The position numbers were made by a program, and so were the translations under genes. The notes under the pieces are model-generated. The model saw only the letters and a list, made by a program, of their open reading frames with translations, ran no database searches and was not told where the DNA came from. 64,000 nt of DNA from Cyanidioschyzon merolae (taxonomy: Eukaryota), in assembly GCA_000091205.1 (NCBI GenBank), contig AP006491.2; one strand, 5' to 3'. Positions 3,134 to 64,000 of the stretch are shown in pieces (within the stretch, counting starts at the first letter, position 1; each line of letters starts with the position of its first letter).

Positions 3134-3182
3134 GTGCGTCGTTTCGCGCCTAAATCGCCACCAGAGGCGCGAAACGACGCAC
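3134..3182. repeat. Perfect 17-bp inverted repeat (GTGCGTCGTTTCGCGCC / GGCGCGAAACGACGCAC) with a 15-nt spacer; strong hairpin/cruciform ~300 bp upstream of the 3484 gene.
   Basis: Read directly from sequence. The arms are exact reverse complements. Confidence 0.6.
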
Positions 3183-8829: not shown

Positions 8830-9165
8830 CGCTGCGCTGCGCGTTTGCATCGGGTGCTGATCCTCGAGCCGACGCCCTCTGTGGTATAGAAAAGCTGTTC
8901 TTGCTCAATGAAGTATCTGCTCCAGCGGCTAAGTTCCCAAGGCGGATGATTAGGTTAGGTACTAGGCACACACGACAGGACGTACGAAACGACCAGAATA
9001 TCCGAGAAGAAGTATAGGTAATGGAACTTGGAGGTAGGGCGTTTGATAGATACTCCACCTCGCACTGAAAAAATAACACAAAAAAGTTTGAAAAGAAAAA
9101 TGCGCATCATCGGAGAACGCTGGCACAAGTAAACGTTTTGTCCATGAAAAACATCCGGTGCTGAT
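8830..9165 (+). repeat. Interspersed repeat family R1, copy B.
   Basis: 'CCTCGAGCCGACGCCCTCTGTGGTAT...GTACGAAACGACCAGAATATCCGAGAAGAAGTATAGGTAATGGAACTTGGAGG...CACTGAAAAAATAACACAAAAAAGTTTGAAAAGAAAAATGCGCATCATCGGAGAACGC' aligns to the copies at 2918, 16030, 39520(-) and 57590. Confidence 0.55.
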
Positions 9166-11605: not shown

Positions 11606-12010
11606 GTGCGTTCGTTTTTGAAGGACAAAAACCCAAGGGAAAGGCATGCACATGTTAGTCAGGGATCCTGGCGGGTCGATGTCGCGGGCTACCAGGAAAA
11701 ACGACAAAATTCTCTTCTCGCCTACCATCGAGCGAAGATGCGCAAGTATCCGAGAAGAATAGGGGATATAGGCAATGAAACGTACTTGCCCGAAAGTATG
11801 ACGACGAGACTGCAGTGGCACAGAGGGCACGAATTCGAGGACTCCTTTCATCGGTGAGTTCCACCAGCGGCAATAAACGCATGGAGTTCGTGAACCGAGA
11901 CTTTAACACCGCCATCAATATCAGACGATGTGTGGTGCTGAAAATTAGGACCGACCGGCTGACGAGAGCGAATCTCCTGGGCTAGCCCCTCAGATTCGAA
12001 GTGCACACGG
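11606..12010 (+). pseudogene. Degenerate remnant of a Fanzor/TnpB-like gene (RuvC-II to RuvC-III region only, stop-interrupted).
   Basis: Translation gives 'RVDVAGYQEKR' (cf. '[11 protein letters not shown]') and '[49 protein letters not shown]' (cf. copy A '[49 protein letters not shown]'). It lies in a low-GC island at 10.7-12.1 kb. Confidence 0.5.
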
Positions 12011-12374
12011 CGAAGCTGCAGCCGAGAGCAGGCGACCGGTTCGAAAAGGCTGGTGACGCGTCTGCGTATCGGTGGATACATGCGCATTCAATATTTGTAC
12101 AGCTTTGTGCTTTTTTAGGACGATCTGAACAATTAGATATCCTAAATGGGCCGCAAAGCATCCATTGCGAGTGATGGAAACAGCATCAGCGACAAAACTA
12201 CATCTAATGATTTCTAAATAGATCTTATCAAACTAAACGAACAAAACGATCCTTGGCCTCATCAGGTTCCTAGATGCATCATGGACGCCCCCCGCCACGC
12301 GCAATCTTTCCCGCGTTTTTCCGCTTCGCATTGGAGCTGCAGAGACGGCACCGAGTACTTGCACAGAGGAAGCC

Positions 12375-17724: not shown

Positions 17725-20700
17725 TTTCCAGGATCTCTTGCGCAAGTATTCTAAGGATAAGGTGTGACCTGGCACGAATCCGTGCCCGCTCAGGGTCGCG
17801 GTTGCATCGGCGGGGACTTGGCGTCTTGTAGTAGTTACAACGTAAAGCAGTGAATTCTGGAATACCCGTACCAGCACGCCCTAACTGCTTTCAGGTAGGT
17901 ATTCATCAAAACAAATGTTTCCTGTAGATACGAGACAGGTCGCCGGACGACTGAATAATGACCATGCTGGCTGGCGAAAAGCGCCATGCTTGAAAAATGC
18001 AGTCATTCTACGGTCAGCGGATGGATAAGCCACGTCTCTCCTGCTCCTCATTCTTAACGTCGTGCACCTGAAACGGTTTTTGTCAAACTCTATTGCAGGA
18101 CGCTCTCCTCGTCAATCGATGCGTTGTTTAGGAAATACCACGAGAAGAGCCACAAGCAGTGCATTCTCCATTCCGTTGGTACGAGCGTTGATCAAGAGAC
18201 CCGAATGGATGCAGAAAACAGCGCGCGTCTATGGGAGCGAATCCCGTGTTGATCAACGCACTGTCGACTCGAGACTGTTACGCGAACGTGCACGACATGA
18301 GGACAGACATTCGTCTCACTCGACGAAACCTCGTTCGGGGGAAACGTCAGACCTTTGTATGGGCACTCAGAGAGGAGCAATTCGGTGTTCTTTAGAAAGA
18401 GAAAAGGGATAAGACGAGAATGTCAGCCCTGGTGACGATTCGTTCGTATGGTAGGCCCCACAAAAAGCCCACTGGACAAGAGCTTCGAAAATCCATTTTT
18501 CGTTGAAACGCTCCGAGCATATACCTATTGATATTCTTTCGCCCTGCTCGTGGATTACGTCATTTCGTATCATTCAAAAGTGGTCAAGTGGTAAGCGACT
18601 GAGATTCATGTTGAGCTGCTCTTCGCGCCAGTCAGTTCTCCCAGGTTTCATGGAGTCCTGGACGTCTTTCCCTTTTGTCCAACGCGACTTGGACGCTCAC
18701 ATATCTGTAGACGGGTCACTTGCATCCGTGACACTGTTCTTCAGCACGTTACTCTCTAGTTTCAACAATTCTGGAACACACTGCTCCTCCTCTGCTCATG
18801 CTGGGCAAGGTGCTGTTCGTTTCGTGGGCGCGCTCGCGACCGAGAACATGACAAAAAAGTACCCGAAAGATAGTAGATATCCACATGCATGGGAAAGGCG
18901 AGCCTCTGTGCTACCGTTCACCCAGTACACCTGAATCCCCTGGAAGAAAAAGATATGATGTAGAGTGACCACATCCATGGCATCCTGCCGATTAAAGAGA
19001 ACGAAGAAGGCTATTGAGAAGGAACCACGAGACAATGAATTGAAAGATCCTTCCGTAAATGGAACCTGGAAGCTCAGGAAGGAGAAACTGTTGAAGCGGA
19101 AACATTGGACCAAAAAACCTGTCGAATCCTCTGCCTTGAAAATCATCAACAGGAAGCATCTGTCGTTAGGATCTGGGACGTCGTTAGAGATCGTGTAGCC
19201 TCTCACTCGAGGAAGGAGTCGCGCATAGTTTCCCTCGTCATGAAACACCGCGTCAAGCAGTTGTTCGAGGGAGTTCCGCATGCATAGCTGCCGTCTGCCC
19301 ACAATTCTACCGGAATTTCTCGATCAGATCTCTGTACGATATTCAAACCATTGCTCGTGACAGATCATCCAACAAGGCCTGATCATTGGATCAGAGATTT
19401 CCGCAGAGAAACACATACATACATACATCCACAAACGCTTCCCAGAAAAACTTGACGTGTTGCCGCGCTTCAAAAACGTCGGCAGGGCAAGTACCAAAAA
19501 AGAATCAAACTATCCAACTTCAAAACCCACATGTAGGTCCAGCGCTTCGCAATCTGCACTCGGTAAGCCTTGTATACTGAACTCTGTGGTCAACGAGAGT
19601 GGAGACCGATGGAAGGAATTTTTGAGGTGCCGCGGGAGGCGGATGACAAGCCCCTGGCCGAGGAGATTGAAAAGGTCGTGCGTTCGGAGCTTATGTCGCA
19701 AGGAGAGCAAGACTAAACCCAGATTGTCCCAGCTCGTTGTATTGCCATTGGCGTCGGACTAGTCGACGTCGAATCCGAAAGATGGCCGGGGACACCAGGC
19801 TGCATTCCTTGCATCTTGCGCGAAGACGATTCCCTGAACAGCACCCTCAGGAACAGAGCAGACGTTCTCTCCGAATCGGGCGCCCTGGCCTCCTCAAAAA
19901 AGCGTATGCGATGCAGTCTCCATAGGTGACATTCTGGCCTATCCCATCAGGGTCGTGAGTCATGCGCTGTCCTGTATGGTGTCTCTAGTGAGCTACGGCT
20001 GCTCTCCGCACGCAAGTGTGAAGTATTCGAACCAGCGCACGAAGCGCACTGGCGTTGTTCGTACATGTTCTCCCGTTTTATTCATCGACAAACTGGAAAG
20101 AATATTTCGGGGACTCTACAGACAGACGGAATACCGAGGTGCAGGTACACCACGAAACCTACGCCGCACTCGAGTAACGAGACACATTTTCAACCGGCCC
20201 AAGTGGATACAGATAAAAACGGTAGAATATTCGTGGATTCCGCTTTGCAGGGCGTTGTCGTCATCGCTGTATCTCTGAATGAAGAGCACAGAGCCAAAGT
20301 CGTGGACAGGAAGCGGTTGAACCTGATCAGTTTTTTGAAGGCTCAGTATCATCGGAATTCGGGCATGCTAGGTGCCAGGACACCAACGAACAAGTGGAAT
20401 GGAGTGACGGGGTCAGGACCGAAATCGACGCACTAAGCACCGTATTGAGCAGAAGGGGATGCTTTCGAAGCGTCGTTCAGAGACTATTGGAGCGTCCAAA
20501 TGACTCATATGGATGACGTTTGGCAGAGGTACACGAAAGTCACGCTGATGACGCCAACTGTTCCGGTTGTTTGGAGCTCCGCGACGTGCTTTCAGCAACT
20601 GGGTCAGTACGTTGGAAATAGAAACGGCGTACAAGTCGGGTATTTGGATTTATTCCATGGCGATAAATACGCAGTTCAGCGCATAGCTGCGCTTATACTC

Positions 20701-21523
20701 CTTCAACGTGAGCGCACAACGAGTAACCGATTCCATTCTATACAATTCCCATCGAAGCAATCAGGAAGACATCCACACGTCACGAGCACGGGTGCCTGCT
20801 GAAACTGGTAGACAAGTCGCGCATGAAACAGAGCAGAACGTACGATATGGAGTCCGACCAGTTGACCAAACATCAGATGACGGTACAATCGAAAGTGAGA
20901 GGTTCGCTATGGTATGGTTCCAACGGCGAAAAGGCGCGCAAACTCTTTCCCCACCCGGTCTTGAAGGTCTCGATCGACATCCGCAAATCTGGACTACACC
21001 CGAAGGTTCCAGCGGTAAAGTTCCGCGCGAACCTGCAAGCGAATCATCTTGTACTCCATATGGACATCGTGCTGAAACGCTGAAGAATTCCACTGAGATA
21101 AAGCGTTGACCTGGGGGCTGCGGGCACTGGATTCCCATCTGGAGCAACGCACTCATATGGTACAGTTCAGCAATTCATCAAGGTAAGTGCGCCGAATGGA
21201 TCTGCTTCTGGGACGGTTTCCACGGGCAACTGGTGATCCATCATTGTGTTCCAGTATTCAGTATGATTGAGAATACGACGTAAACACTGTTGGAGCACAA
21301 CGCTTGAGGGCGCTCGCTGCTCCACGTGCCCAAACGCCACCAAGGAGTAGCGAGCAGCAGCAAGCATCATGCCCGTACGAGTGTGGTGTGCAGGGCACTC
21401 CTTTTGTCTGCGGATATAGCGCTTTTCATGGTTGTGGACAGGAAAATCTCACTAGATTTGTACGCCGGAGCAATGACCGGGGAAGAGAACTCAGCTTCTC
21501 CGAAGATGGGGTCCCGTTCCAAT

Positions 21524-23984: not shown

Positions 23985-25483
23985 GTCGTTGAAAGCAGCA
24001 GCCCCAACTTACGGCAACCAGTTGATCACTTCACGCTGATTCCAGGGAACAAAGAGCGACGGCGAGTTTCGTGCGCTTCGCTTCAGACGTAAGCGTCGCT
24101 CACACTTTTCCTCGAAGAAAAGAAAAGTGCGCGCGCGCGCTCGACGCTGCCGTCGGTACCCGCCAAATCTACAGGCTGCGGTCTAGGCGTCGCTGTGAGC
24201 GTTTCGCGAAGCGTCTAGGCACGTTCACTGGTGGACGCTCTTACAGGTGTCGCAGAGAAAAGCACAACCGGAGGACGTCTGACTCGTTTAAGGGACCAAA
24301 AATCGCCAGAAAGTTTGGATAGCAACGTCGATGCCATTGCATTCTGCGGCTGAAGACGCAGGGTGGAACTTCACCGCTGAAGTTCGGTGATGCGTCGACA
24401 GCTTCCTCGATATGCGCTCGAGCACGCCTCCTCTGGCGCACTACGGATTCTGCTCGTGAAAACCTAAAATCGTCATGTTTCCCGAACTCTCTTCTTCTAT
24501 TCCATTGGTCATGAAAAGGACGTTTGCGTCTATTGCTAGCGCTCTCGACGCGACCTGGAAGCAACCGAGTCATCGGAATAGCGTACGACTGGGGCCGTGG
24601 CGCGCTGCGGCACCTGCCAGCCAGTGCCGACAGGTCACTCGGTGAACACGCACCGGTGGACACGCTAGGCGAGCATCCAGATGGGATTCCATGTTTTACG
24701 GGGTCGAAACGAAGGCTCTATTCAGAGAACCCTGAACGCACGACTCGTATCGGCAACCAGGGAAGCGGCTACCATGTCACTCCAGCCAATTTGAGTCTCC
24801 ATATTCACAGTCAGATTTTTCTTCGGGGATCACCGTTCATTCGAGCGATCCTTCGAGTGTCGCATTTGTTGTGCGCGTCTGTTGCAGCGCGAAACGCGCT
24901 GTTGCTGATGCCCCTCTACAGACAGAATCGCAGTGCCTTACGCCTATGGGTATCGTCAAAAGGGATGGAAGCACCTGTGCGTACCAGCGGGTTGCGCTCG
25001 ACATTCGCACTGGATGCAAGTGTCAGAGTGTTTCGTTCATATTCGGACTAGGTGGAAGCACGTGCGGGCGCTTCGCTCCGAGGTTGTGACGTTGCACGAC
25101 GAGGCGCCTCCGCCGGTGGCATGGCTGGCGTTCGGCATTTTTCGCGCGGATGCCGCTGTTGCTATCGCAGAACCCGCGCCTCGACGCATGCTCAAGTCGA
25201 GACCTCGTGAAAGCTTGTTACAGAATCCGTACGTTTAGCGCTATCACGGACGAATACGTCGCAGTGCAGGCAGTCGGCTGGCTGTGTGCTGTGCACCAGC
25301 TTTGAACGTGGATCATCGGGCAGCGATGCAGTCGAAGGCGCGAATCACGAGCACGCTCCACTGCGGCAGGTGCTTCATTCACAACCCGAGGGCGCGACAG
25401 GAAGCTTGTCACGAGAGCCGTAAAAGCTCAAGAGCGAGCGCTCATGGATCTGTGCTGTCACCAGCGACACCGCAGATGATCGC

Positions 25484-31856: not shown

Positions 31857-34800
31857 TTAGGGTGCCTGTTCGCCAGGGGGCATATCCTGCTGGGGCTCTA
31901 TAGCCATATCGGTATCTGCAGCGGTATCACCGGGATCAACATCAGCAGCGGCTGTATCAGGAGCAGCATCAGCGGTATCACCGGTTTCAGTAGCAGGTGT
32001 ATCAGGAGCAGCATCAGCCGTCTCAACATCAGCAGCAGTGGTATCAGTAGCAGCTGTATCAGGAGCAGCATCAGTATCGGCGGTATCAGGAGCAGTATCG
32101 GGAGACGTTTCCTCTGGACCTGAACCGCTCGCTGACACTTCCAGTGGATCCGGAGCAGATTCCATGGCTGGTGCTTCCGCGTCCACACCAGCAGCATTTG
32201 AATCACCAGCAGGCTCTGGGGCAGCTTCTGAAACATCTTGTGGTGCACTGGCCTCCGTCCGAGCATCTGCTGCGGGCGTTCCTGGTGCTGATGCCTCACT
32301 AGTCTCCGGCTCGAGCGCAGGAGGCGCGTCCGTAGGCGTCTGCTCCGGTGCCTGCGCTGACTCCTGCGTGCGCTCATTCTCCACTGATCCAAAAGAGGCA
32401 CAGTGCTGAACCATTAGGACAGCCGAATACGGTTCCATGTGGAAAGGCATCGATACGCAGGTCATCGAGGTTTCGACGTCCTCGGGGAAACCGCTCGCTC
32501 CAGCCAGCGCGAAACAGTCCATCGGTGCAGGTGCCGCTGTATTGAAGAGCACCGCCCAGCCTGACTTGCCGTCGGCAAAACGGGGGGCAGTGATATCGCA
32601 CGCTTCGTGTGAGGCGTTAAAAGCGATGTAAAGGTGGCGACCTTGCAGTGCTGGTGCCCGTGCACCACGTATTACAAACGCCAAAAAGTTGTTCGGATTT
32701 TCCCAGTTCAGGGGACAAGCGGAGGTGTCCGCCAATGGCTCCTCTGAGCTCGTGTCATCATCACGCTCGCCTACGGAGCCAAGGGCATTGCAGAGTACCG
32801 CTGCCGAGGCGTCCGTGCCACACCAAACAAAGTCGCCGCGAGACTCGGAGAGAAAGCGGCGCCAAATGGGGGCAGTCAGCTTGCGAAAGTGCACCAGCGT
32901 ACTCACAAAGCGGAAAAGGGAACGAGCTTCACCGGACTCGGATGCCAACGCATTCCAGTGGAGATAATTGAGCTCATTATCCTGACACCACACGTTGGAG
33001 TTGCCACGCTGGGTGTGGCCGATTTCATCCCCGCTGCGGATCATAGGGACTCGGGCACTGCACAGCAGTATGAGGAAAAAGTTGCGCTCCTGACGACGTC
33101 GCAGACGCAGCACGTTCTCATCGTCGGTCTCGCCCTCGACACCACAGTTCCAGCTGAGATTGTGTTTCTCGCCGTCGCGGTTGTCTTCGCCGTTTGCCCA
33201 GTTTTGGGCATCGTTATAGGACACAAGATCGCGGAGGCTCATCCCGTCATGGCAGGTGATAAAGTTGATCCCGTACGCGTGGCCGTTCTCCTGGAGACCC
33301 CGCCGAATCTCCGCCGGAACATTCCCTCCGTAGATGTCCTCGGAGCCGCAAATCCGGGTGGCCATCTCTTGGATCATGCCGGTGTCGCCCTTGATGAACT
33401 TTCGTACGCAATCGCGGTACTTGCCATTCCAGTCGGACCAGCTGGGTCCAAATTGTGCGAAATGCCCCACGACGTAAGCGCTGAGGTCCCATGGTTCTGC
33501 AATGAAGAGCACGTCTGAGAGGGCGCTATCGTTCTTCAACGCTTGAATGACTGCTGGGAATTCCATGAGATCGAAAGGAGGCACCGTGGAGCGGAGAAGG
33601 CATGCTGCCAAGTCAAAGCGAAACCCATCGACTTGCATATCGTTTGCCCAGAAACGCACGCAATCATGAATGACCTCAATGCCTGCCAAAGAGTTGCAAG
33701 CGAACGTGTGGCCGCACCCAGAAAAGTTCACATCGTTACCATGATCGTGCAGATAGTACTCTCGATTCGCGAGTGCCCTAAAGTGGTAGGTCTTCCACGT
33801 CTCGGCGGTGTGATTGAAAACAATGTCGAGAATGACGGCGATGCCAGCACGGTGCAGTTCGCGTACCATGGTGCGAAACTCATCCAGAACATGGCGGTAG
33901 CGGTACGCTCTTGCCCACTTTCGGCGCGCAGCTTCCGAGGTGGCCGCCCCAATCACCGAGAAACGGTTCATAGGTGCGAAGAATGCAACCGTCGAGTAGC
34001 CCCAGTACTGGCAGAGATCTTCCCCAGTGGAAGGGTTCTTCTTCTGCCACTCCAGCTCATTGAACTCGAAGATAGGCAAAAACTCGACGCAGTTGATGCC
34101 AAGCGCTTTCAAGTACGGAATTTTTTCGATCACCGCGGTAAAGGTTCCTCGGGGGCTGCGGATATCCTTCGCCATTGCCGTAAACGAGCGCACATGGACC
34201 TCGTAGATAACCATGTCGCTGGCTGGTATGTTGGGCTTTCGCACGCCTTGCCAATCGAATCCGCTCAGGTAGTCGAGTGGAGGTATCACCGCAAAAGGAG
34301 TGTACTTATTTTTGCGCTTCTCTCTGGCATGAAAATCATAATACAGCGGTGAGTCAATGATGCGTGCGAAAGGATCGAGCACTATCTGCGCACCCTTGCC
34401 GCGACCTACGCGCCATGCGTACCGGTACCCAGCCAGAAGCGGTTGCACCGCCACGTGCCAGACTTTACCCATTCGGTTTTTCCGAGGATCAAGGCGCAGC
34501 TCGACGCAAGAGTCCAGTGCAAGCACTGCAAACCCACTGCTGTCGTCGTTAGGCGGCTCGAGGTTCTTGTCGTCGCCGGCTTCAGCGTCTTCGGGAATAG
34601 CTTCGAGCGCACCGCTGCCTGCAGCGAGCGCACTTCCCTCGGGATGATATATGATCAGAGACATGTGCCGCTGCTCAGTGCTGTAGATCGCAAAGTTGAC
34701 AGTGTTTGCATCGAGCGGGTGACACCCGTACGGACTCGGTTTGCCTCGGAGGACGCGGCTAAGCCAGGGCGCTCCAGTGAGCGACTTGCGCGACTCAAGA

Positions 34801-35139: not shown

Positions 35140-35468
35140 CTGATGCTGCTGCTGCTGCTGCTGCTGATGCTGCTGCTGATGCTGATGATGCTTTCGGAGG
35201 TGGCGCTCATTGCCGCCTCCGCTTTGCGATTTAGCCGATCTCCCGTGCAAGGTGGCGCTGCTGCTGCTGATGATGCTGCTGCTGCTGATGATGATGCTGA
35301 AGATGCTTTCGGAGGTGGCGCTCATTGCAGCCTCCGCTTTGCGATTTAGCCGATCTCCCGTGCAAGGTGGCGCTGCTGCAGCAGCTGCTGCTGATGATGA
35401 TGCTTTCGGAGGTGGCGCTCATTGCCGCCTCCGCTTTGCGATTTAGCCGATCTCCCGTGCAAGGTGGC

Positions 35469-35499
<31 letters not shown>

Positions 35500-35568
35500 A
35501 TGCTTTCGGAGGTGGCGCTCATTGCCGCCTCCGCTTTGCGATTTAGCCGATCTCCCGTGCAAGGTGGC

Positions 35569-35599
<31 letters not shown>

Positions 35600-35610
35600 A
35601 TGCTACGTTC
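35140..35610. repeat. Tandem array (4 units of ~96-116 bp) containing (GCT)n/(GAT)n tracts and a conserved 9-bp-stem hairpin; ~250 bp upstream of the isoamylase start.
   Basis: Unit 'GATGCTTTCGGAGGTGGCGCTCATTGCCGCCTCCGCTTTGCGATTTAGCCGATCTCCCGTGCAAGGTGGCGCTGCTGCTG...' starts at ~35187, 35303, 35399 and 35499. Confidence 0.75.
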
Positions 35611-36825
35611 GATGTTCGTTCTAATTCTAATATGTCGCTGCAGGGTAGGCGTACGTTCATGGAGCGAAGCGATGCAGGCTAGTAATAAGGATCGTGTACT
35701 GGATATCTTGGAGTTTGTACGCTGGTGTTGAAACTTGTACGTGACTTTCATTGTTGTTCTCTATGAGAGTAACTGCGAGGCGATCTGATGGCATTCGATA
35801 CGGCAATGCAGCTGTTCCTGGATGAAAAGCAGTTCCGCTGGTATCTCGCTCGATAGCACTGGCGGATCAGATGCGTCCTCGTAAGCGCGTCACGGGATAC
35901 GTCCACGCGCTGCTTCTTTCATTGGTACGGGGAAACGCCTGGGTTCTCTCACGCCTTGGTTTCTTCTATGATAAAACGAGCGCTTTCGTTTCTACGACGC
36001 TTTGCACGCACTTATCACTGGACTGCACGGCCCGTACCCTCTGCGCGTCCAAGCTCGACACTGTAACGTATCCAAGACGCAGTACGGATGGTGCACACTG
36101 CCCGTGCTAGTGCGTCCCTATTGCAAAGCGTCGGGGCAGATGGCTGCCCAGCGGCCTGGCAGCGGGCCGCAAGCGTACGCTTTCCTCCTGGAAGACTCGG
36201 GGATGTTGTATCACGAACGAGCGCCCCAGAGCTGCCTCCATTCCCAGACACCGACTAGTGTGGTATCGAAAACGTTCTCTTCCAGTGGTTTTCTTCGCCG
36301 CTGTCGTGCGGATTGCCAACACAGTGGTTCACGAGAAGGAGCACGCCTTCTGCCGGGTGCCGAACCCCGAGCACGCTGCCGTGCGCAGCATCGTTCCGTG
36401 TGGATGCAACCATACCGGAGACTGCTAGCACGCATCGACTACTGTTCATGAGGCGCTGTCTAGGAAGATGCCATTGATAAGGCGCACAAAACAGGAATTC
36501 GCATGGCGCTCGCGACACTCTCCTGTGTTCTGCAGACTTGAGCCCAGCGCATGTCCAGTACGTTTCCGCTGCATATGGAGCGCACTGCAGCCATCAGGCG
36601 TCAGTTGCGATGCCGTGCAGGACGCTTGTACAGGATAAATGCAATTGAGGCTCAACCATGGCGTGTATTTGAAAACATAATCAGGAGGCAACGACGTTGA
36701 CATCTGTGTGCAAGAGCCCCCAGGGTAAGGCTCAGTTCCGGCATTGGCGGCCCCGGGGCACGGCGGACAATGGCCGTACGCATTCGGTTTGGAGTGTTTT
36801 ACTGGTAAAGGTGCTGGGGTGACTG

Positions 36826-37027
36826 CTTTAGACTTGCTGGACACCCGGTACAGAGCCTATTGGAAAAGCCGTGCTTTCTAACGTTTGTCAGCTTGATCAA
36901 TCGTTGGGAAGCGCTGCTTCACCTGCCTTAGACTTGCTGGACATCCGGTACGGAGTCCTTTGGGAAGCCGTGCTTTCTACCGTTTGTCAGCTTGATCACT
37001 TGTCGGCAAGCGCTGGTTCAACTCCCT
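36826..37027. repeat. Two tandem ~101-bp direct repeats ~100 bp upstream of the PheRS-alpha start.
   Basis: 'CTTAGACTTGCTGGACACCCGGTACAGAGCC...GCCGTGCTTTCTAACGTTTGTCAGCTTGATCAATCGTTGGGAAGCGCTG' is repeated with ~88% identity. Confidence 0.55.
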
Positions 37028-37124
37028 GAGACTCACTCCGCAACGGAACAGGCCTTTGTGCACAACCCAGACTTCCAGGATTCCGCAGTGTGAACAAGCA
37101 ACGTCGGGTTCAGCAGCGCTCAAA

Positions 37125-38747: not shown

Positions 38748-39519
38748 CGCACTAGTGCACGCCCGAAAATCGTCTTTGCCGATCCTCTGTCTCGGCTGGC
38801 AGCGCAAGTGCTCGCTCTGAAGCTGTAGAGACAGCGCGGTGCGAACACTTGATATGGGAGCTCCAGATCGACTTCGCTTTTACCAGACGCATATGAAAAT
38901 GGAAACGATGTACGAGTGCTTCACTGCGTCAGACGATGATCTCCGGCATGCATGCTTCCTGATCCCATGCGCCCTGTCGAGAAGCTATCCAATGCTTCGA
39001 TCATCCAGCGATGCATCCGCCTGGGCTGCATAACGCGATATCCCAGACGATGTGGAGGCCGCGCGCGGGCGCTCGGCCAGCGTCAACACCGCACCTGTCG
39101 CGCAGCCCAGGATCGCCTGCGCGGGGCACCAGCAGCGCTGGTTACAAGTCTTGCGCACGGAAACCATGCGGTGCGCACTGGAACGTCCACGCACGCGTGA
39201 CGTTCGCTGGGTGCTCGCATCACACGCCCAGCGTATTCGGAAACCCTGCAGCGCTCTGCTCACGCGTCATGAAAATACCTCCCGTCGTTCCTGTATTTCA
39301 GACCCGAGAACCTTCTCGCGGAGCTGTTCCTGCGCTTGAACCTGCAGCAGCAATCGCCTCTTCGCCAGAGGCGCACGGTTCGTACTTCAACGACGCCAAC
39401 AAAAAACCAGTCGCTTGCTCCAACTCACGCCCGCCTAGCGTCCACGAAAAGTAACGCGCAAACGCTCCTGTACTTGCGTTCAGCGCCTCATAGAAAGCTG
39501 CATGCGTCGGCGCTGTCCG

Positions 39520-39900
39520 TTCGCGCACGCGTGATCGATTTTTTTTCATGGACAAAACGTTAACTTAGGGCAGCGTACTCCGATTATGCGCATTTTTCTT
39601 TTGTTACTTTTTTTTTTTGTGTTTTTTCAGTGCGAGGTGAGGTATTCATCAACCGCCTACCTTCATGTTACATTACCTATACTTCGTCTCGGATATTCTG
39701 GTCGTTTCATACGTCCTATCGTGTGCCTAGTGCCTGGCGAAAGCGACAGCAATAGCGCCTATAGCGCCGGTGCGGTCGCTGCACGGAGACAGAACGGCGT
39801 TGCCGTACCACAAAGGGCGTCGGCTCGAGGCGTGGTTCACTCGACGTAGAATCGGGTCTCGTCGTCAGTTTGTGCTCGGAGAGTCTGCGGATGCAGGCTT
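39520..39900 (-). repeat. Interspersed repeat family R1, copy D (inverted orientation).
   Basis: The reverse complement of 39560-39720 reads 'AGGACGTATGAAACGACCAGAATATCCGAGACGAAGTATAGGTAATGTAACATGAAGGTAGGCGGTTGATGAATACCTCACCTCGCACTGAAAAAA...', matching copies B and E. Confidence 0.55.
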
Positions 39901-41405
39901 GTCTTCGTTGCACGACACGCTGGAGAAACTTGGCTGTTAGGATGAATCCTGGGAGCCGCCTCTCTCCTTCGTGATCATGCATGGAATGCGTTGTTGTCGG
40001 TTGGCAAGGCGGATTTGTGCTTGACACCCACCAGTGGGTAGGCGCAGAAAGCAGTGGGCCCGTGTGCGCACCCGATTCGCTGGACCTTCCGCCTAGAAGG
40101 TAGCGTGTGAGTTTGTTCGCCACTAATGAGCGCTGAGGCTCGGTTAGCGGACCATCAGTTACCAGTGCTACACTCAGAGTGAGTGTCCGGCCTTCGGCTA
40201 CCACGCTGATGCCCAGCTGCTGCTGTCCTTCAAGGAGCTCGCTGCGCTCCTGCTTCCAGCGCGGGCACTGTAAGCCAAAAATATGTCAGCGTCTCGGGGA
40301 TCTCATCCCCACTCGCGTGATCGATGCAGGCGCACACCTTGCACGCATGCGCTGGAGACACGTGTACGCACGGAGGCGCTGTGCGGGGCGCTGCACGCCC
40401 AACGCCATCTGCGTGCGGGCGAGATCGCAGCTGCCACGTGGCATTTGCGCATCAGTGCTGCTGATGCCGATACCTGCTTCCGTGCGCCACCGGGGAACCT
40501 CGCCGAGCAGCGTGATCGGCCACACTGCCGCCGTGTGCGTATGAATGCGTGTGCGTGTGTGTGTGTGTTCATTTCGCAACCCGTTTGTTGCGTGTGCATT
40601 GTTGACGAACTGCGCATTTGCCTATCGCCTAGTGAAAGGGGCGTTTACGAGAGCACTGCAGGGTTTCGCGGGTGACACTCTTGTTGTTTTACGTAAAAGG
40701 CGTTATTTTCCAATGCTGTCGTTCGTTTCTGCGTTGTGGTGGCATGCGCGACACGGTGTGGATATGCCGGGGTTCTTGCCCGGAGTGCGCTGCGGCCTCT
40801 CGTCTGGGCTTGTTCGGAACCGAATGATATGGTCGGCTGCCACAGCGGCCAAGGGTGGGAAACCCAAAGAGGCTAGTCGCGAGCAGGCGAAGCGCCCCGA
40901 ACGCAAGGACGACGACAGGGGCTTTCAAAAGGGTGGCGGCGGTGGTGGCGGTGGTGGTAACGGCAGCGGCAAACCTACCAAGCGCGACAAGTAATGTGGA
41001 AATAGCGGCGTTTAGCGGTGGCAAGACGGCGTGCAAGCGTTCGGAGGAGCGTCATGGAAGCCTGTATGCGGGTGGCGTGCAGCTAGGTTTCCGGTCAGAG
41101 AGCGTTACGTAAACGAGAACTGGTCTTCGTGACATCGTTTGCTGCATCATTCGCCATTTGGACGTCCAGAACAGCGCTTTCGAGCTCGCATATGCCGTGT
41201 TTTTTCTCTCTCTCAGTCGCGTTGGTATGTCAGCAATGCGAAACGATTGCGAGAGCGGAACCGGAAAACGCGTATCCTCGCATACACGGCTGGACGTTGT
41301 GCAGCCACGAGGCGGCAAGTCGCCAGGCACCTCAGTTCCCTGCATCGCTGGCGCGATACTCCTTACCTAAAGGTAGCCGCGCTCGGGTTGTCCGCCGCAT
41401 TTTCC

Positions 41406-50323: not shown

Positions 50324-50359
<36 letters not shown>

Positions 50360-54354: not shown

Positions 54355-56173
54355 TCAGGGGCGCTCCCCAGAACACATCACAACGAGTGCGCACGCTGCT
54401 AATGCGAGAACGCGCACAAACCCCAGCCACCCGACACGCTGTGTATATAATAGGGACAAACATTTTGTCCGCAGCGTAAGCACTATATACTGAACTGAAA
54501 GAAAGAGTTGGTAAACTTCGTTCACGCACCGCGCAGTGTCGTAGTCACCGGCCGAAATGAAGCTCGTAAGAAACGAATGAATGGAGGGCTGTAGCTCGCA
54601 CGGCCGGCGGCGGTGGCTCGCACGGCCGCCGACGGTGTTCAGCAGTGGCGGCGAACGCGCCTTAGACAAATCGTCTCCACCTGATGTGCAGACGCCTCCC
54701 AGTTTTTTGGACCGGCCACCCACTACTGCTTCCAGCTTTTTCTTATATAGTTCCACTTTGGTAGGTTGTCCAACAAAGTTCTCTCGTGTCCAGTCTGGAG
54801 GCCTTTTCTCCATTACCGCACATCTTACATTGATCACTGCGTGAAAGTCTCTGTTCACGAATTCCATCCGTTTCTTGCCATCATTGAGTGTACTTACTAA
54901 TGCAAGCAATCCTCTAAATTTCGCCCTCCTTTCCATTTGCCCCTCCATCAGCGCTCCGTATTTTTTTATATCCTCAGGACTCCTCTGGCACTTTTCCATC
55001 CCCACTCTGTGATGCGTACACCCCAGTTCGTGGTGTGTATACGATGTTCGGAACTCGTCTACAGGTATCGTAGCGAAACGCCGTGCGCACTCCTTGTACG
55101 TTCTTGTCGACGGAGCTGGTGTAGTCCCTTTTTTGGACGCCCAGCGCTCTGCTCCGTACGCTACGACGAGCCTCTGACTTTCATTCTCCTTGAGGGCGCT
55201 CAACGCATTGAAAAAGTTGGCAAATGCACGCAGCTTACCACAATACAGATTCTTACGCAGACGAGCCCACCGGCGCTTGGTGTACTCTTCCCACAGCGTA
55301 TCCCAATGAGCAACGCGGACCTTCCATGGACTCCCGAAAAGCTTCAAAGTCCGCTCCTTGACTCGTCACCTCGCTCAAAGCTTCTAGGTGATCCTTCATT
55401 CCTGAATTCCAGCTCTCGATTTTCTTCCCCGCATTCATGATTCCCGATTCTCGATAGTATCTAGCTCTCGAGAACCTCAATAGACGCATGTCTTTCTGAC
55501 GTAAACTACCGTCAGTACCATCTTCCGCACACTTCGGTGCTGCGATGGTGATGATATTTGTGTTTCCGGGGTCCGCGCCAACGACAAAGTCGATATCTTG
55601 CACTTTCTGCGTCGCAGGAGCCGCCTTGTTGTTATCTTCATGCTTCGTCGCGTCAACGACCAGGTCGTTATCCTCCACCTCCTGCATCGCAGGATTCGCC
55701 TTCTTCTTCTCTTCATGCTTCCCCGCGTCAACGACAAGGTCGTTATCCCCCACTTCCTGCGTCATAAGACCCGCCTCCTTCTCATTTCCTTCCTTCGCCG
55801 CGTCAACGAGAAAGTCATTATCCTCCAACTCGTGCGTCTCTGGATCCTCCTCTTTGTTTTCTTCGTTCTTGGTCACGGGCGTAGCCGAGGGCGGACCAGG
55901 ACGATCTGTCTTCAAGCGCCGATAGTGTACACACATGGCTACTCCATCGGTTTCGATCATCCCAGTGAATATCTTTTGTTTGCTCACTCTCAGGCGTTTG
56001 AAATTGAAGATGTTCTTTAAGTACGTCTCCCGGTTTTCACCGGAGAATTCTTCCCTGCTGACACTGAATTCGGGACTGATCTCCTTCATGATGCCGTAAA
56101 GGACTCTGGAGTCGATGGTCACAAAATGTGACTTGATATTGGACATCGGAATCACGTTAAAGCGCTTCCCCAT
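54355..56173 (-). CDS. TnpB-like (Fanzor-type) RuvC nuclease, copy B. Exon 1 is 56173-55257, the intron 55256-55199 and exon 2 55198-54355.
   Basis: RuvC-I '[18 protein letters not shown]', RuvC-II-region '[11 protein letters not shown]', zinc-finger region '[28 protein letters not shown]', RuvC-III '[20 protein letters not shown]'. The same GTAAGA/TTGAG intron as copy A joins the two ORFs. A 1-bp change in an A-run relative to copy A moves the stop from the 54676-equivalent to 54355. Confidence 0.6.
54628..54800 (-). ncRNA. Candidate omega-RNA scaffold region at the 3' end of Fanzor copy B.
   Basis: Same conserved 3' terminal block as copies A and C. The adjacent flank (54600-54627) would supply the guide if the element works like TnpB/Fanzor. 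Confidence 0.25.
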
Positions 56174-56199
56174 TAGGAAAGCCTTCCGTCTCTCCTACT

Positions 56200-57104
56200 C
56201 TTCATTTGTCTTTTCGCTCAGCTTCATCTCCGCTTCGCGTTCGAGCTCCGGGTCCAAGAACACAAAATACCGTACGACGATGCGATAGTATCTCCCCTGA
56301 TCCTTTTTCAACTCTGATATCTTTTCTGTTGGATTCACCAGCCCCAAGATTGCACGGCGCTCTTGTATAACCGAACGGATGAGGGAATTCTCATTTGTGC
56401 TCCTGCGTGACGTCTTCTTGTCGACAAATTCGACCTCATCTCCATTCTTACGATCTTTCGTAAAGCCATTGGTAATCGCCTATATTCATTTGAGAGAGCT
56501 GCCTGGGTAGAGTGCAAAAACGGCGCGTACCATGAAACGTTCGAGTTTCACGATCACGTGATTCTCCAGTTTCGTGATGTACTTCGTCGCCCCTTATATG
56601 TAAACATTCGAATCACCCCTGTATGGAGTACTGTTGAAGCTGTAGAGGGGATGTTTTTCGTAAAGGCCATGCACTAGCACATTTTCCCTCCGCGTTTCCG
56701 CTGTGCCAAGCATCAGGTGTCGAATAAATGTCTTACCGAAAAAATCGTCCGGAATCTCGACCGTTTCCAAGTGCGCCACGTTTTCGTACATCTCTCTCGC
56801 CAAATGCATCAGTCTTGACGACGCCTTGAAAATACTCATGGAGTACGAATCGAAACGTTTTTCGATAGCGTCTCACAAATTTTCCCTGTAAGGATGGTTG
56901 ATATGTTTAAGAAGACGGGCTTTCACCAGCATCTCGTCGAACAGTCGTCTTTCTTGCCGCCTTCGACTTAGGGCCTCCCCTTTTGCTTCTTCTTCTTTTC
57001 CTGTTCTTCTGGACTCGGCTCTGTTTTTTGTTTTTATTTCTGGCAGCAGGCGACCCTGGACCTACAGAATCGTCGACTTGCTTTTTCATAGCTTTTCTTT
57101 TCAT
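56200..57104 (-). pseudogene. N-terminal region of the copy B Fanzor gene (K/R-rich NLS-like segment plus putative WED-like domain), interrupted by in-frame stops.
   Basis: 'MKRKAMKKQ...RNKNKKQSRVQKNRKRRRSKRGGPKSK' (56907-57104). Downstream, '...FMVRAVFALYPGSSLK*I*AITNG...' is homologous to the continuous 164-aa ORF of copy C (62119-62613, 'FMIRVAFVLYPGIFREAMLAIIDG'). Confidence 0.4.
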
Positions 57105-57589
57105 TTTTTTTGTGTGAAAAAGAACGCTCTTTGAACCCTTCTATTATATACTGCGAGAAATCAATTGAATATGTTTACTTGAGGGTAGAGACACAATCGA
57201 ACTGGAAACTATGATTTGTTACGACTTCCACGCAAATACAGCTTGCCCGTTAGAACATCAAGAAAACGTGTCGTCACGGTCGCGTTTCTCTTCGAAGGCG
57301 ACAGATGCGTCGTGTCTCGTAAGTGCCATACTTGGAGATGCACGTATCGAGCGCGCCATACAGGAAAAAGGACAGTGACCTACGATTTACAAGAAACGAT
57401 ATAAAATTTTTTCCCGCTCTACGATAAGCGTTTAAGGGGAAATAGATCGCCGTACTATCGGAAGCTTATGTTCGAGGCGGAAGGTCCCGCGAGCCGGTCG
57501 AGTCTACCGGGCTAGAGCTCGGTATGCCTCTAAAGTGGCCGCTGCCGCTGCTGCCGCTGCTGCTGCAAGACCTGCGTAGCTCGTTCGCA

Positions 57590-58095
57590 ACGCATTTTAT
57601 CCTGAGACTATGCACAGGACGCTGCGTTGGGCCTCGCCCTGGTCGCAGTGGAATCCTAGTACAGCACTTCGCGCTGTCGCAGGTAGTAGGTCTGTCTGCG
57701 CATTTTGCATGTTCCCAGAATGACAAATAGCCCTGATTCCGGTTCAGGTGAATCATTCCTCGAGCGGACGCCCTTAGTGGTATGGCAAAGCCGTTCTGTC
57801 TCTGTACAGCACCTGCTTGAGCGGTATAAGCGCTACAGCGGGTGCTCACAACAGGCTCGGCGCTCGATAGAACATACGAAACGACCAGTATATCAGAGAG
57901 GTAGTATGGATAATGGGACTTGAGGACAGGTGCACTATGATCGAGATATCCCCGGAAGCCATCGTGCGTTCCGAATTCTGGGATGCATGGGCAATGCAAA
58001 CGTTCTTTCATCGAAAAGAAAAAAACGCTCCGGAGGCGGACTCGTCATCGAGACGCGCATCGCTCTGGATCGAATCTCCGGAAGGCGCTTCTGGG
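57590..58095 (+). repeat. Interspersed repeat family R1, copy E (longest, ~0.5 kb), abutting the 5' side of Fanzor element copy B.
   Basis: Aligns to copy C over its 5' half ('GCAGGTAGTAGGTCTGTCTGCGCA...CCCAGAATGACAA') and to copies A, B and D over its 3' half ('...ACGAAACGACCAGTATATCAGAGAGGTAGTATGGATAATGGGACTTGAGG...GAAAAGAAAAAAACGCTCCGGAGGCGGAC'). Confidence 0.55.
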
Positions 58096-59479: not shown

Positions 59480-60644
59480 GCATGTTGCCTGTGCGTGGTA
59501 ACGCGTTGGATGCGGATCGTTTACAGGGACGTTAATCAAATGCCTCGTCGAAGTGCGGGCTCTGCACAAGCGTGCTCGGTCTGTACTCAAAATAAGCGGA
59601 TGGACAAGGAGGACTGAGATATGCTGGATACCTATGCCAAACTGGTAGGTCTTGGCAACGTACAAAAGGTGTGGAGGGGAGCGTCCGTAACCATCTCGGC
59701 GAGCTTGTTCCAAATGGACAGCATTGCTGAAGGACAAGGTGGCACCAGAATTGCAGCTGCAGAGTAGCGTTCGCCTACTATCATCATTGAAACCTGCTAG
59801 TCGTGTCATGGATACCGGACGTGATGGAGTTCGCATCCGCCACAGCGAACAAGGATCAAATCAACTGACTCAAAATTCTCCAAAGCGATGCGTGGATGAA
59901 AGCTGGCGAAAGTTGCGGGTCTGGTACGGCATAACGTACGCTTACCCGGATGCCGATATGCATCGCGCCTGGCCCGAGATACCCTGGTTCAGGTCAACCA
60001 TTCTAAACCGCAGGATAAAAGTATGCCATGATTTAACGTTCACTGATGTTGGCTGGACGGCATCGCAACGCTCCACGAACCTGGGCGCGGCGCCGAAGGC
60101 TTAGTTTCCGAGTATGACCGTGACAGACTTTGCTCTATGCGTACGGATCTGGAAAACACGAGCCGGAAGTGTGCACCAGCACGCATGGGCGACGAATAAA
60201 ACCCTTAAAGCGACGTACGAACAGTGACCTAACGATGCAAGTGGAACGAACCGAATACCCTGAGGAAGGTATGATGGCACAGCTTCTGCCTTGAGAGCGG
60301 GTGCACAAGCGCTTCAGTGCGGTAGAGGCGAAATCGTGCCGAAACGCCCGATTCGCGTCAGCGCTTCCAGTGACCAGGAATGTGCCTCCAGCTTCTCTGA
60401 CGTTCCTCTCGCGTCCCAGCAATTCTGGTACAAAGTTTCGCTCTATGCAGCACAGGCGCTGATGCAGCGCTCCTTCGGAAGCCCTGCCTTCCGCAAACTT
60501 GCACCGAAACGTTCCGTACGCAGCTATTGTGGTTATGCTTCAAAAGCAGAACGGTATTGCAGTGTCTTGGAAGCGTCGGCTCGAGCTTCTGAGGCCGAAA
60601 CGTCTCGGACGACCGCCGCACCCGACGACAACAAACATCTTTCA

Positions 60645-62831
60645 AAACAAAAACGTTGCTGCCGGCAGTGTACAGTAGTGGCGGCAACCGTGCCCTAGAC
60701 AAGAAGTCGCCAACTGACGTGCAGACGCCTTCCCGTCTTTTCCGACCTGCCACCTACTGTGGGTACCATTTGTTCTCATATAGTTGCAGTTCAAGAGGTT
60801 GTCCAACAATGGACTCTCGTGTCACCGCTGGGAGTCTTTTGTCCATTCCCGCACATCTCCGTAGATTGATTGCAGCGTTAAGGACTCGGTTCACGAACTC
60901 CATACGTTTCTTGCGGTTGATAGTCGTACTTACTAGTGCAAATAGTCCACGAGCTTTCCCCCTCCTTTCCATTTGCTCTCCGGTCAGCTGTCCCTTACTT
61001 TTTTATATCATGACGACTCCGCTGGCACTTTTTCCCTCTCCACCCTCTGAAGAGTATATCCCAACTCGTCGTGTGTAACGATGTTCGGAACTCACCCACA
61101 GGTAACGTAGCGAGACCCAGTGCGCACTCCTTGCCCATTCCTGCCGTTGGAGCTGGTGTAGTCCTTTTTTTTTCGGAGCCCAGCTCCCTACACCATATGA
61201 ATCAACGAGCCTCTGACTTGATTCTCTTTCAAGGCGTTCAATCGATTGAAAAAGCTCGCGAATGCGTGATGCTTACCACGGCACAGATTCATACGCAAAC
61301 GAGGCCACCGGGGCTTTGTATACTCGCCCTACAGCGCCACGGAATGAGCAACACGAACTTCCATGAATTTCAGAAAAGCTTGAATGTCCGCTCGTCAGCT
61401 CGTCACCACGCTCAAAGCCTCCAGGTGATCCTTCATTCCTACATTCCACGTAACCATCTTCTTCCTTGCATTCATTATACCGGATTCTCGATAGTATCTC
61501 TCTCTCTCGAAAACCTCAGCAGAAGCATATGTTTGTGGCGTAAGGTGCCGTCAGTGCAATCTTCCCTTCGCTTGTGAACAGCGATGGTTATGATATTCGT
61601 GCACCAGGGACTAAGGCCGACGCCAAAGTGGTTTTCATGGGGCTTATACGTTCCATAGCCCGTCAACCTGTGTTCGTTCTTCGGCAACGCCCGTAAAGAA
61701 GACGGGATAGGACGAGCTGCCTTCAACCGCTGATGGTGTACACATATGTGCGCCACATCGAGATCGATTGTTCCAGTGAATAACCTTTTTTTGGCCGGTT
61801 CGGGACGCTTGAAATCGAAGATATTCTTCTAGTAGGCGTCCCGATCTTCACCGGAGACCTATTTGTTGATTACATCGAGCTATGGATAGATCTCTATCCT
61901 GAAGATGCAAAAGGACTATGGGGTCGATATTCACAAAATGTGACTTGAACGCGCATAACCGACCGACATTGAAGCGCATCTGGAGAAGACTTCAATGTCG
62001 TTTCTCGCACTCGTCTTTTTTTCCACACTCAGCTCCATGCCGACCCTGCGGTCGAGGTCTCGGACCGAAAACATGGAGCAGGGCAGGATGAGAGAGTAAC
62101 AACTCTCTCCGTCGTTTCTCATATCCGAGAGTTTTCTCTTGGGCTGACATGACCCAAGACCGAACGATGTTTTAGAATAGTGGCGCGAATTACAGGAGCA
62201 TCATTCATTATCCTGCGTGATGTCCTCTTGTCGACGAGTCTGATCTCCTGTTCATGCTGGCGATCGTTCTTCATACCATCGATGATTGCAAGCATCGCTT
62301 CGCGAAATATGCCCGGGTACAGCACAAAGGCGACGCGTATCATGAAACAATCGAGGTTTGCCATTTTATGGTTCCTCATATTCGTGAGGCACCTCTTTGC
62401 CCTGTAGTCGTAAATGTCTGCGTCACCCTTGTGTCCAGCACCGAAGACGAGGAATTTGGCGTAATTCTTGAGGAAGGCATGCCCTCGCTCACTTATCCCC
62501 GATGTTTTCCCATTAAAAACAATCAGGTAGTTGATAAAAGTCTTTTGGAAAAATTTTTCCGGAAACATCACTTTCGCGATAAGCGTTACGTCCCGATGCA
62601 GGTCGCTGTCCAAATGCCAACGTCCTAAAGAAAAGCTCCAAACATACCCGGCCTACGATCCGCCACGGTTTCTGATAGCGTCTCGCAACAATCAGTCGTA
62701 CGGATCATTGATATGTTGGAGAAGATAAGATTCCACCACCATCTTGTCGTACAGAAGTCACAATTTCGGCCTTCGATGTAAGGCCCCCCATGTTGCTTCT
62801 TCTTCTTTTCCTGACCCTCTTCGCTAGGCAA
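60645..62831 (-). pseudogene. Fanzor/TnpB-like gene of copy C, pseudogenised. It lacks the 3 extra tandem repeats seen upstream of RuvC-I in copy B.
   Basis: Homologous segments lie in different frames and carry stops. The RuvC-I aspartate context is degraded to 'GLSPW'. Confidence 0.5.
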
Positions 62832-63310
62832 TATGTCTCATTTCATTCTGACATCCGGCAGCACCGGCCACCCCAAACCCACTACATCATACTACATAAG
62901 TGTCAGATTTTTTGGGAGAACATCTCATTGGACGCTTCTGCTTTGAACGGCGAGAATCTGGTGAATAGAGTTACTTTAAGATTGGAACGCCACTGAAGCC
63001 AAAACTATACTTTGCTACGATTCGATCGCAAATACAAGTGGCCCCGATAGAGCAGTCGCTCCAGAAGAGGTCATTACCGCGTTTTTCTTGATCGGAGAGG
63101 CGCACGTTGGGTGACGTGACGGCCAGATTTCGCGATGCGTTACCAGGACGCACGACAGAGAAAATGCAAAAAAATTAACCAATATGCACAAACAGGATAG
63201 CAAGTACTATTGCAACCTAGTGTAAACGTAAAGAAGATGATTTCGCGTATGGTCAAAGTGTTACATTTAATCGGGAGGTCTGCGTGCCGCGAGACTACCG
63301 GCCTGCCCTC
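60645..63310 (-). mobile_element. Fanzor/TnpB-carrying mobile element, copy C (degenerate, multiple frame disruptions).
   Basis: Fragments 'RMEFVNRVLNAAINLRRC' (60754-60972), 'GLSPWCTNIITIA' (RuvC-I remnant, 61475-61756), 'RFNVGRLCAFKSHFVNIDP', an intact 164-aa N-terminal-domain ORF (62119-62613) and the K-rich 'GQEKKKKQHGGPY' segment (62625-62831). The 3' terminal ~100 nt are conserved with copies A and B. Confidence 0.55.
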
Positions 63311-64000
63311 CGTGTGACTTTCAGTGGAGAGTGATATGAGACACTTGGGCAACTCATCCAAAACGCAATTAATTTCGGGACTAGGAGCAGGCATGCTGCG
63401 TCTGAGCACTAACACCGTCGCGGTGAACAGATAGTACGCCGTTTTACGCTACCGCATGCAAATCGTCTGCAAGATCCGCTTGGAGGCTCCAAAGAAAATA
63501 AATCTCCCTGATACCATGTAGCATGAACCAAGCCCCTTCCAACGCGCCCAGTGGTATGTCTGAGCTGCCCTGCTTCCGGAGTGCACCCACAGCGGCGATA
63601 GAGAGGCTACAACGGGTGCTCAAGGTAGGTAAACGGCGCACGATAGAAAGTCAGATACAATCAGTACAGCCGAGATCAGGTAAATGCGACGAAAAGTACC
63701 GAAACTGTTCAGCGTGACGAAATATTTTCCGAAACAAATATCGATCCGGCAATCTCGGCGTCTGGTCAGTAAAAAAGGTTCTGCCGAAACAAACAAAAGC
63801 AAAGCGCTGGAAGGAGATCCATAAGGGCACTGGTGTGCTGGATGTAGATAAGACAGATGCGTATTTGCTCAGATCGTACCGCCGGAAAAAAACCCAAACA
63901 AACCTGGAATCGTAGACATCGCTCTGACAGATGCTTTTGCTCTGAGAACACTGCAGTAATGGGGCATTGCGTCGAATGGGGGAGTGGGGGAAATGGGGGG

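Follow-up and report, generated by a model that had tools for sequence, protein, structure and literature searches.

The interspersed repeat R1 of Cyanidioschyzon merolae is probably the 3' end of a LINE retrotransposon family, with a short derivative adjoining Fanzor1 units

The repeat family R1, which occurs as short intergenic copies in a 64-kb stretch of the Cyanidioschyzon merolae genome (the whole of that stretch is referred to here as the window), is best explained as the 3'-terminal part of a family of non-LTR (LINE) retrotransposons that belongs to red algae of the Cyanidioschyzon lineage. We place the probability of this reading at about 0.9. Copies A, B and D are then truncated copies of the LINE, and copies C, E and F represent a short derivative of it. 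The evidence consists of homology between the copies, a common 3' end, variable 5' ends, target-site duplications, continuity with a reverse transcriptase (RT) ORF in related loci, and the identity of the short form with part of the published element CMe-1A.

Results

Copies of R1 in the window

The window has a GC content of 55%, comes from an intron-poor cyanidiophycean red alga and carries long uninterrupted ORFs, including housekeeping ORFs for an MCM-binding protein, a trehalose-6-phosphate synthase/phosphatase with CBM20, an isoamylase, PheRS, ALG11 and LDH. The earlier note had described five copies of R1, and self-BLASTN analysis revealed that all five are present and mutually homologous well above chance. 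Copies A and B shared 82.6% identity over 132 bp (E 2e-25), A and D 79.9% over 154 bp, B and D 85.3% over 197 bp (E 6e-51), D and E 76.6% over 171 bp (E 1e-18), and C and E 86.7% over 60 bp; the links among A, B and D spanned 80-85% (E 1e-24 to 6e-51). A five-way alignment contained one common body. Two of the blocks quoted as shared, GTAGGTCTGTCTGCGCA and CCCAGAATGACAA, are exact in copies C and E, and a third, ACGAAACGACCAGAATATCCGAG, is found in B, D and E when up to two mismatches are allowed (shuffles predict zero occurrences); the internal A-rich stretch was recovered in copies A, B and D. Profile searches showed that the boundaries first proposed were too tight for C, D and E, and identified further copies, one clear (F) and one weak (G). 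The description of the copies as differently truncated holds for their 5' ends but not for the 3' end, which is common to all of them.

Copies A, B and D share a D-type 3' end and are each flanked by a target-site duplication. Copy A (2920-3062, plus strand) is a 143-bp, 5'-truncated LINE 3' end that matches positions 1354-1493 of the family profile (E 1e-29). The 13-bp direct repeat reported at this copy, CGATCCCGCACCA, is exact at 2907-2919 and 3063-3075, and an identical 13-bp duplication is carried by the orthologue of copy A in L009. Copy B (8862-9151, plus strand; 290 bp; profile 1188-1506, E 2e-90) is also a 5'-truncated D-type LINE 3' end, flanked at 8848-8861 and 9152-9165 by a 14-bp duplication, CATC[G/C]GGTGCTGAT, with one mismatch. 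Copy D (39540-40313, minus strand; profile 722-1502, E 3e-267) reaches 40313 and is thus 774 bp long; this 5'-truncated LINE comprises a remnant of the ORF2 C-terminus, a 3' UTR of ~400 bp and an A-run, and an exact 12-bp duplication, ATCGATCACGCG, lies at 40314-40325 and 39528-39539. Removal of the element and one duplicate gave predicted pre-insertion sites of GCACGCAG-CGATCCCGCACCA-GCGTCC for copy A, GCGTTTG-CATCGGGTGCTGAT-GCGCGTC for copy B and GCGCCTGC-ATCGATCACGCG-TGCGCGAAC for copy D. The 3' flank and tail of copy D are also present in L056, where 12660-13014 matches window 39480-39836 at 96% identity; upstream of profile position ~1198, L056 carries LINE 5' sequence in place of the window's sequence, which reflects either structural variation or chimeric assembly of the metagenome contig.

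The remaining copies are of a second, E-type form. Copy C (16109 to ~16478, plus strand) is an old 5'-truncated copy resembling TE-N2, with a degenerate A-rich tail (E 2e-55, composite profile 3034-3394). Copy E (57363-58025, plus strand) is a TE-N2_CMe-like module in which a ~105-nt head is followed by ~520 nt of LINE 3'-end homology and then by an A-rich tail. Copy F (63073-63797, plus strand; E 8e-57) is a degenerate module of the same kind on a second Fanzor copy. No recognisable target-site duplication was identified at copies C, E and F. Copy G (24730-24963, minus strand) is a weak candidate fragment of the E-type body, detected by profile search alone (E 1.9e-8, 26 bits).

Other repeats were also observed in the window. 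A tandem array with a period of ~100-115 bp and 90-95% identity occupies 35144-35604, shorter internal repeats lie at 36823-37033 and 31919-32095 (one of them within the isoamylase ORF region), and a related motif is found at 50324-50356.

A common A-rich 3' end, scattered 5' ends and target-site duplications across the family

We scanned metagenome data with a degenerate core motif, TAYRAAACGACCAGWAYAYC, and obtained 120 hot-spring contigs, in which BLAST defined 138 R1 intervals at ~95 distinct loci; as these loci were fished with an R1 motif and some may come from sister species, the counts apply to the family and not to a single genome. The same motif had no match in the viral contigs scanned. 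Alignment of the copies with their flanks revealed that homology extends far 5' of the boundaries first proposed and stops at a common A-rich end, ..GTCAATGAAAAAAATC, also written ..ACGTTTTGTC(A/C)ATGAAAAAAATC. A profile built from the last 1.5 kb of the element gave 140 hits. Among these, contig-internal 3' ends clustered at profile positions 1496-1508, and 5' starts were scattered (722, 824, 930, 1020, 1079 and onwards to 1402).

Exact direct repeats of 9 bp or more flanked 21.5% of 65 non-redundant copies compared with 1.4% of re-paired controls, the former rate being depressed by the D-type profile, which defines many E-type 5' boundaries poorly. The duplications are 12-18 bp long, as in ATCGGATGTCGTG, TCAAACTGCATGAAGCGA and ATACAGCATGCAGTG, and mostly start with ATC(G).

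Longer relatives of R1 run into a reverse transcriptase ORF

The longest relatives of R1 (L071 and L100) extend colinearly upstream by up to 4 kb, and this extension contains ORFs, oriented like the 3' tail, with non-LTR RT motifs; the Pfam RVT_1 match has an E value of 2.6e-23 for L100 and of 4.9e-8 for L071. The best solved relatives of this RT are R2 and LINE-1 ORF2. As the longer relatives run upstream into the RT ORF, R1 corresponds to the LINE 3' UTR together with the C-terminal coding end: the LINE 3'-terminal region is made up of the final ~230 nt of the ORF, a 3' UTR of ~400 nt and an A-rich tail ending ..GAAAAAAATC, and a CCHC-like motif lies close to the C-terminal end of the ORF. 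Over 56 aa, the ORF remnant of copy D shares 73% identity with the C-terminal ORF of the L100 LINE, which carries RT, and the L100 RT is 85-89% identical to two C. merolae proteins annotated "retroelement, alive" (BAM80398 and BAM80536). A tblastn search identified no RT-coding copy within the 64-kb window, and the link to RT comes from metagenome contigs, possibly of related species.

The longest LINE ORF (L127 1286-2710, minus strand; L056 12894-14255, minus strand) starts MRYDSIGFVSWNICG..ELIQVED, a stretch similar to the N-terminal ~45 aa of an APE endonuclease; this APE-like start (..SWNICG..) is followed by a lysine-rich linker that leads directly into the RT. Pfam and PDB-sequence searches of the 474-aa pre-RT ORF of L127, of L056 and of the C-terminal ORFs revealed no endonuclease of APE or restriction-like type, in copies that may be degenerate. 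Either the LINE may lack an endonuclease or all of the examined copies may be degenerate.

The LDH encoded in the window is 99% identical to JGI metagenome proteins, 73% identical to its match in Cyanidiococcus yangmingshanensis and 72% identical to a second protein, present in NCBI, JGI and Logan. The elements thus look better conserved than this housekeeping protein, with the CMe-1A-type copies of the window at 76-88% nucleotide identity to the C. merolae consensus and the L100 RT at 85-89% amino acid identity to the C. merolae proteins, versus 72-73% between the LDH and its best cyanidiophyte matches; paralogy of LDH, slow-evolving master copies or horizontal transfer are possible explanations.

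The short E-type form corresponds to the 5' module of CMe-1A

Copies C and E depart from the D-type sequence within part of the 3' UTR. The E-type form is ~650 bp long and consists of a ~105-nt non-LINE head followed by ~520 nt with homology to the LINE 3' end, and many copies begin within a few nucleotides of GAAAGAACAG. The head shares with the LINE's own 5' end a short similarity alone, CAAAGAAC..CACTA. Short-form copies also occur on their own, and the one in L025 is flanked by a perfect 13-bp duplication, ATCACGAGCTGCG.

Two elements described previously in C. merolae match this form. CMe-1A is 3169 bp long, is present in ~150 copies and lacks terminal inverted repeats, and its class and duplications were left undetermined (Bao & Jurka 2013, PMC3627910); its first 635 bp are 95% identical to the whole of TE-N2_CMe, a separate element of ~70 copies (PMC3627910). 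We aligned the CMe-1A consensus (supplementary file 2 of Bao & Jurka 2013, PMC3627910) to the window and found that it matches 58013-54625 over its full length at 81-88%. Positions 1-2196 of the consensus correspond to window 58013-55798 (81%), which covers copy E and part of the adjoining Fanzor unit, positions 115-554 to 63675-63241 in copy F (70%), and positions 118-350 to copy C (77%). CMe-1A 1 to ~650 is the reverse complement of the E-type consensus. The published consensus begins right after the A-run, so the tail and the duplications were missed. Sequence comparison identifies both TE-N2_CMe and the CMe-1A 5' module as LINE 3' ends, read from the complementary strand.

Three Fanzor1 units were identified in the window. 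Unit 1 (54625-57350, minus strand; CMe-1A ~646-3147) is a frameshifted pseudogene with 88% identity to the consensus across 1027 bp. The unit ends upstream in ..CGAGCGCGCC at ~57350, and together with copy E it forms one CMe-1A-type composite. Unit 2 (60639-63072, minus strand) is degenerate (CMe-1A 758-3166, 76%) and forms a second composite with copy F, the composite profile matching window 60666-63797 over its positions 3-3394. Unit 3 (1-776, plus strand) is a 3' part cut by the window edge that matches CMe-1A 2392-3139 at 88% and window 54627-55377 at 97%. The Fanzor ORFs in the window agree with the CMe-1 Fanzor1 protein of Bao & Jurka at nearly every residue. Searches of Pfam and of PDB sequences with these ORFs returned nothing, a weak precomputed DUF8286 match being the only one on record, and the identification as Fanzor therefore rests on the published CMe-1 protein and CMe-1A DNA.

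Further traces of Fanzor units were observed. CMe-1A 2851-2960 matches window 11834-11940 at 84.5% within a broader weak match at 11725-12079, and a weak match lies at 20319-20801. An acidic repeat of the Fanzor ORF is encoded by tandem ~75-bp units at 55573-55864; their number varies between copies and is greater in L126 than in L125.

Alternatives to a LINE origin of R1

Copy E is antisense to the adjoining Fanzor unit, begins ~10 nt from the upstream terminus of the unit and runs into it unbroken. The same junction is repeated at five or more further loci, among them L016, L023, L026, L055 and L120, which are different loci since they do not carry the LDH flank seen in the window. As copy E matches the first ~650 bp of CMe-1A, it is part of the Fanzor element. 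The earlier statement that the family is distinct from the Fanzor element and that copy E abuts it is therefore borne out by A, B and D, which are independent of Fanzor, but not by copy E, which is colinear with CMe-1A 1 to ~650. This arrangement allows another reading, in which the E-type module, and R1 by extension, represents the terminal "left end" of a DNA transposon that carries Fanzor, and the solo short copies are deletion derivatives mobilised by a DNA mechanism. Such an origin would account for the colinearity of copy E with the CMe-1A consensus and for the recurrence of composites at paralogous loci, and CMe-1A was handled by Bao & Jurka as a single element with defined ends (PMC3627910). 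It is also in keeping with the absence of any convincing duplication around whole composites (window composites 1 and 2, L120, L016, L003, L026, L038, L121 and L125/L126). However, the E-type module shares homology with the 3' terminus of a LINE that encodes RT, and it has the same terminal A-run; a 13-bp duplication of the retroposition type flanks the solo short copy in L025; and copies A, B and D are present without any Fanzor sequence. Fanzor units are likewise found without the module and with a sharp end, ..GAGCGCG, and no terminal inverted repeats were detected in copies B, D and E. We consider the left-end origin improbable.

An origin of R1 as a pol III-type SINE or as a dispersed family of structured-RNA genes is less probable still, at only a few chances in a hundred. 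The 5' end of the short form is fairly fixed (composite profile 2727-2739, ~13 loci) and its head is unrelated to the LINE, as might be expected of such elements. In contrast, ARAGORN found no tRNA-like sequence, and no Rfam family reached its gathering score in the whole window; a search of copies D and E with E values up to 1 gave sub-threshold, chance-level matches, the best being snR75 at 23 bits versus a gathering score of 40. RNAalifold gave weak consensus folds of -14 and -1 kcal/mol on 29 D-type and 25 E-type 3' regions, respectively, and on account of this weakness no conserved structure is claimed. Moreover, copies A, B and D are truncated forms of a LINE that codes for protein, and the short-form head adjoins a TATA-like junction common to the Fanzor promoter region. 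Among the classes suggested for R1 when it was first noted, "SINE-like" came nearest, in that a short form with a LINE tail exists; no pol III head was found in this form, and the A, B and D copies are LINE truncations. A dispersed structured-RNA gene family is not supported by any of these searches.

The suggestion that the copies are MITEs or solo LTRs can be dismissed, as these short, interspersed, intergenic copies, of which copy A is flanked by direct repeats, have no terminal inverted repeats (in copies B, D and E) and no fixed short duplication (12-18 bp), combine variable 5' ends with a fixed A-rich 3' end, and continue upstream into a single RT ORF rather than a gag-pol region between two identical repeats, in an alga whose 26 retroelements were all reported to be non-LTR-like, with no LTR elements (Nozaki et al. 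2007, PMC1955436).

Fanzor1 units adjoin LINE-derived sequence

The upstream terminus of the Fanzor unit is sharp, ..CACCGAGCGCG, and almost always adjoins LINE-derived sequence. Three kinds of LINE-derived neighbour were observed: the 5' end of a divergently oriented E-type copy, the A-tail of a D-type LINE oriented as the Fanzor gene (L021, L031, L042, L071 and L095), and an E-type tail (L051). Unrelated DNA was found at this position in one kind of locus only (L046/L052). All sequences adjoining the terminus end ..AT within an A/T-rich stretch. A target duplication would have placed another copy of the Fanzor terminus 5' of the LINEs whose tails adjoin a Fanzor unit, but none was found there.

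Loci chosen by Fanzor protein rather than by R1 all carried LINE sequence head-to-head to the Fanzor gene. L125/L126 contain a complete CMe-1A composite; in L121 an intact 752-aa Fanzor lies beside a 1.3-kb LINE 3' fragment; and in L127/L128 and L129, which have different flanking genes, ~160 bp of nearly identical spacer sequence separates the Fanzor terminus from the extreme 5' end of a long RT-bearing LINE. An exact 15-bp tandem duplication (CGTATCGACCGCGAT, twice) was observed in L121 at ~5673-5702, where the Fanzor terminus meets the 5' end of the truncated LINE. The two ends of the L071 contig (1-194 and 4361-4553) are 99% identical inverted copies of the Fanzor upstream region; the LINE of this contig is thus flanked on both sides by Fanzor units in opposite orientations, unless a repeat was collapsed during assembly. 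In three unrelated assemblies (L122-L124, NCBI assemblies GCA_0135xxxxx), a DDE_3 transposase gene of the Tc1/mariner type is directly followed by a distant Fanzor homologue (P0196, 29% identity), a classical DNA-transposon context that is unlike that of the red-algal family.

These junctions raise the possibility, which we regard as doubtful, that the Fanzor1 gene is an antisense, head-to-head partner of the LINE rather than cargo of a DNA transposon. The full unit would then consist of a leftward Fanzor gene, a divergent spacer of ~160 bp and a rightward LINE running from RT to R1 and the A-tail, as arranged at the independent loci L127, L129 and L071, and CMe-1A and the form in L121 would be internal-deletion derivatives that kept Fanzor and the LINE tail. 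The LINE machinery might move the whole unit from an upstream start site, or LINE and Fanzor might be functionally coupled; the LINE ORFs seen have no recognisable endonuclease, whereas Fanzor is an RNA-guided nuclease. The lack of target-site duplications at whole composites and the presence of LINE-tail neighbours in the opposite orientation weigh against a partnership. The junctions are explained equally well by an independently moving Fanzor unit that, within a GC-rich genome, preferentially targets the A/T-rich termini of LINE copies, and this preference accounts just as well for the Fanzor units that adjoin LINE tails in the opposite orientation. The known TAMs of Fanzor1 are 4-5 nt long and AT-rich, and no retrotransposon is known to encode Fanzor (2026 review, PMC13565253).

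Discussion

The structure of the R1 copies suggests insertion by target-primed reverse transcription. A nicked target with a top strand of ATC(G).. would pair with the ..AUC 3' end of the RNA and so prime cDNA synthesis; premature arrest of synthesis would give rise to 5' truncation, and a second nick 12-18 bp away would produce the target-site duplication. Copies A, B and D would accordingly be truncated LINE insertions that were dead on arrival. The short derivative represented by C, E and F, a ~105-nt non-LINE head joined to a LINE tail, would be equivalent to TE-N2_CMe and was probably mobilised in trans through the shared tail. Copies E and F each lie head-to-head with a Fanzor1 unit, and each such pair makes up a CMe-1A-type composite. 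The family may still be active at present.

As a repeat, R1 is unremarkable, being LINE remains scattered between the genes of a compact algal genome, and it is kin to catalogued C. merolae elements. An interspersed element of 3.2 kb with a WSV486-like ORF, which is present in 253 copies and makes up ~5% of the genome (Nozaki et al., PMC1955436), is probably the same family as CMe-1A. White spot syndrome virus is listed among Fanzor hosts. What is new is a class for TE-N2_CMe and for the 5' module of CMe-1A, both of which were unclassified in Bao & Jurka 2013. In addition, a Fanzor1 family that is among the most abundant known is systematically joined to LINE sequence, including head-to-head RT-bearing LINEs, and the lineage therefore offers a concrete test system for how solo Fanzor1 elements spread without a transposase. 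Either form of LINE-Fanzor partnership, if true, would contradict the view that no retrotransposon carries Fanzor (PMC13565253).

The family can be compared with several known systems. It resembles the C. merolae "retroelement, alive" entries in belonging to the same algal lineage and to the non-LTR type, a comparison made on the RT protein. Partners that share a 3' tail are known among LINEs and SINEs, as in UnaL2 and UnaSINE1 of the eel and in L2 and MIR, and HAL1 is an internally deleted derivative of a LINE. Like the UnaL2/UnaSINE1-type pairs, the family described here combines a short non-autonomous element with the 3' end of a partner LINE, and the two have the same duplications and the same 3' terminus. 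Unlike those pairs, the R1 short form was found to have neither a pol III head nor a conserved 3' stem-loop, and its head adjoins the Fanzor promoter region. Copies C, E and F match CMe-1A 1 to ~650 at 70-81% and are of a length similar to that of TE-N2_CMe (~650 bp), the match to TE-N2_CMe being an indirect one through the CMe-1A consensus. The module described here differs from the published TE-N2_CMe in being derived from a LINE tail, in having an A-rich end that is absent from the published consensus, and in its duplications. Finally, the composites share with CMe-1A the order of TE-N2 module, Fanzor1 ORF and terminus ..GTTTTTCTTTTGAAAGGCG. They differ from it in that the window copies are pseudogenes and in that, in an arrangement absent from the published description, the Fanzor unit of related loci is instead linked with a LINE fragment of 1.3 kb (L121) or with a full-length LINE that carries RT (L127, L129 and L071).
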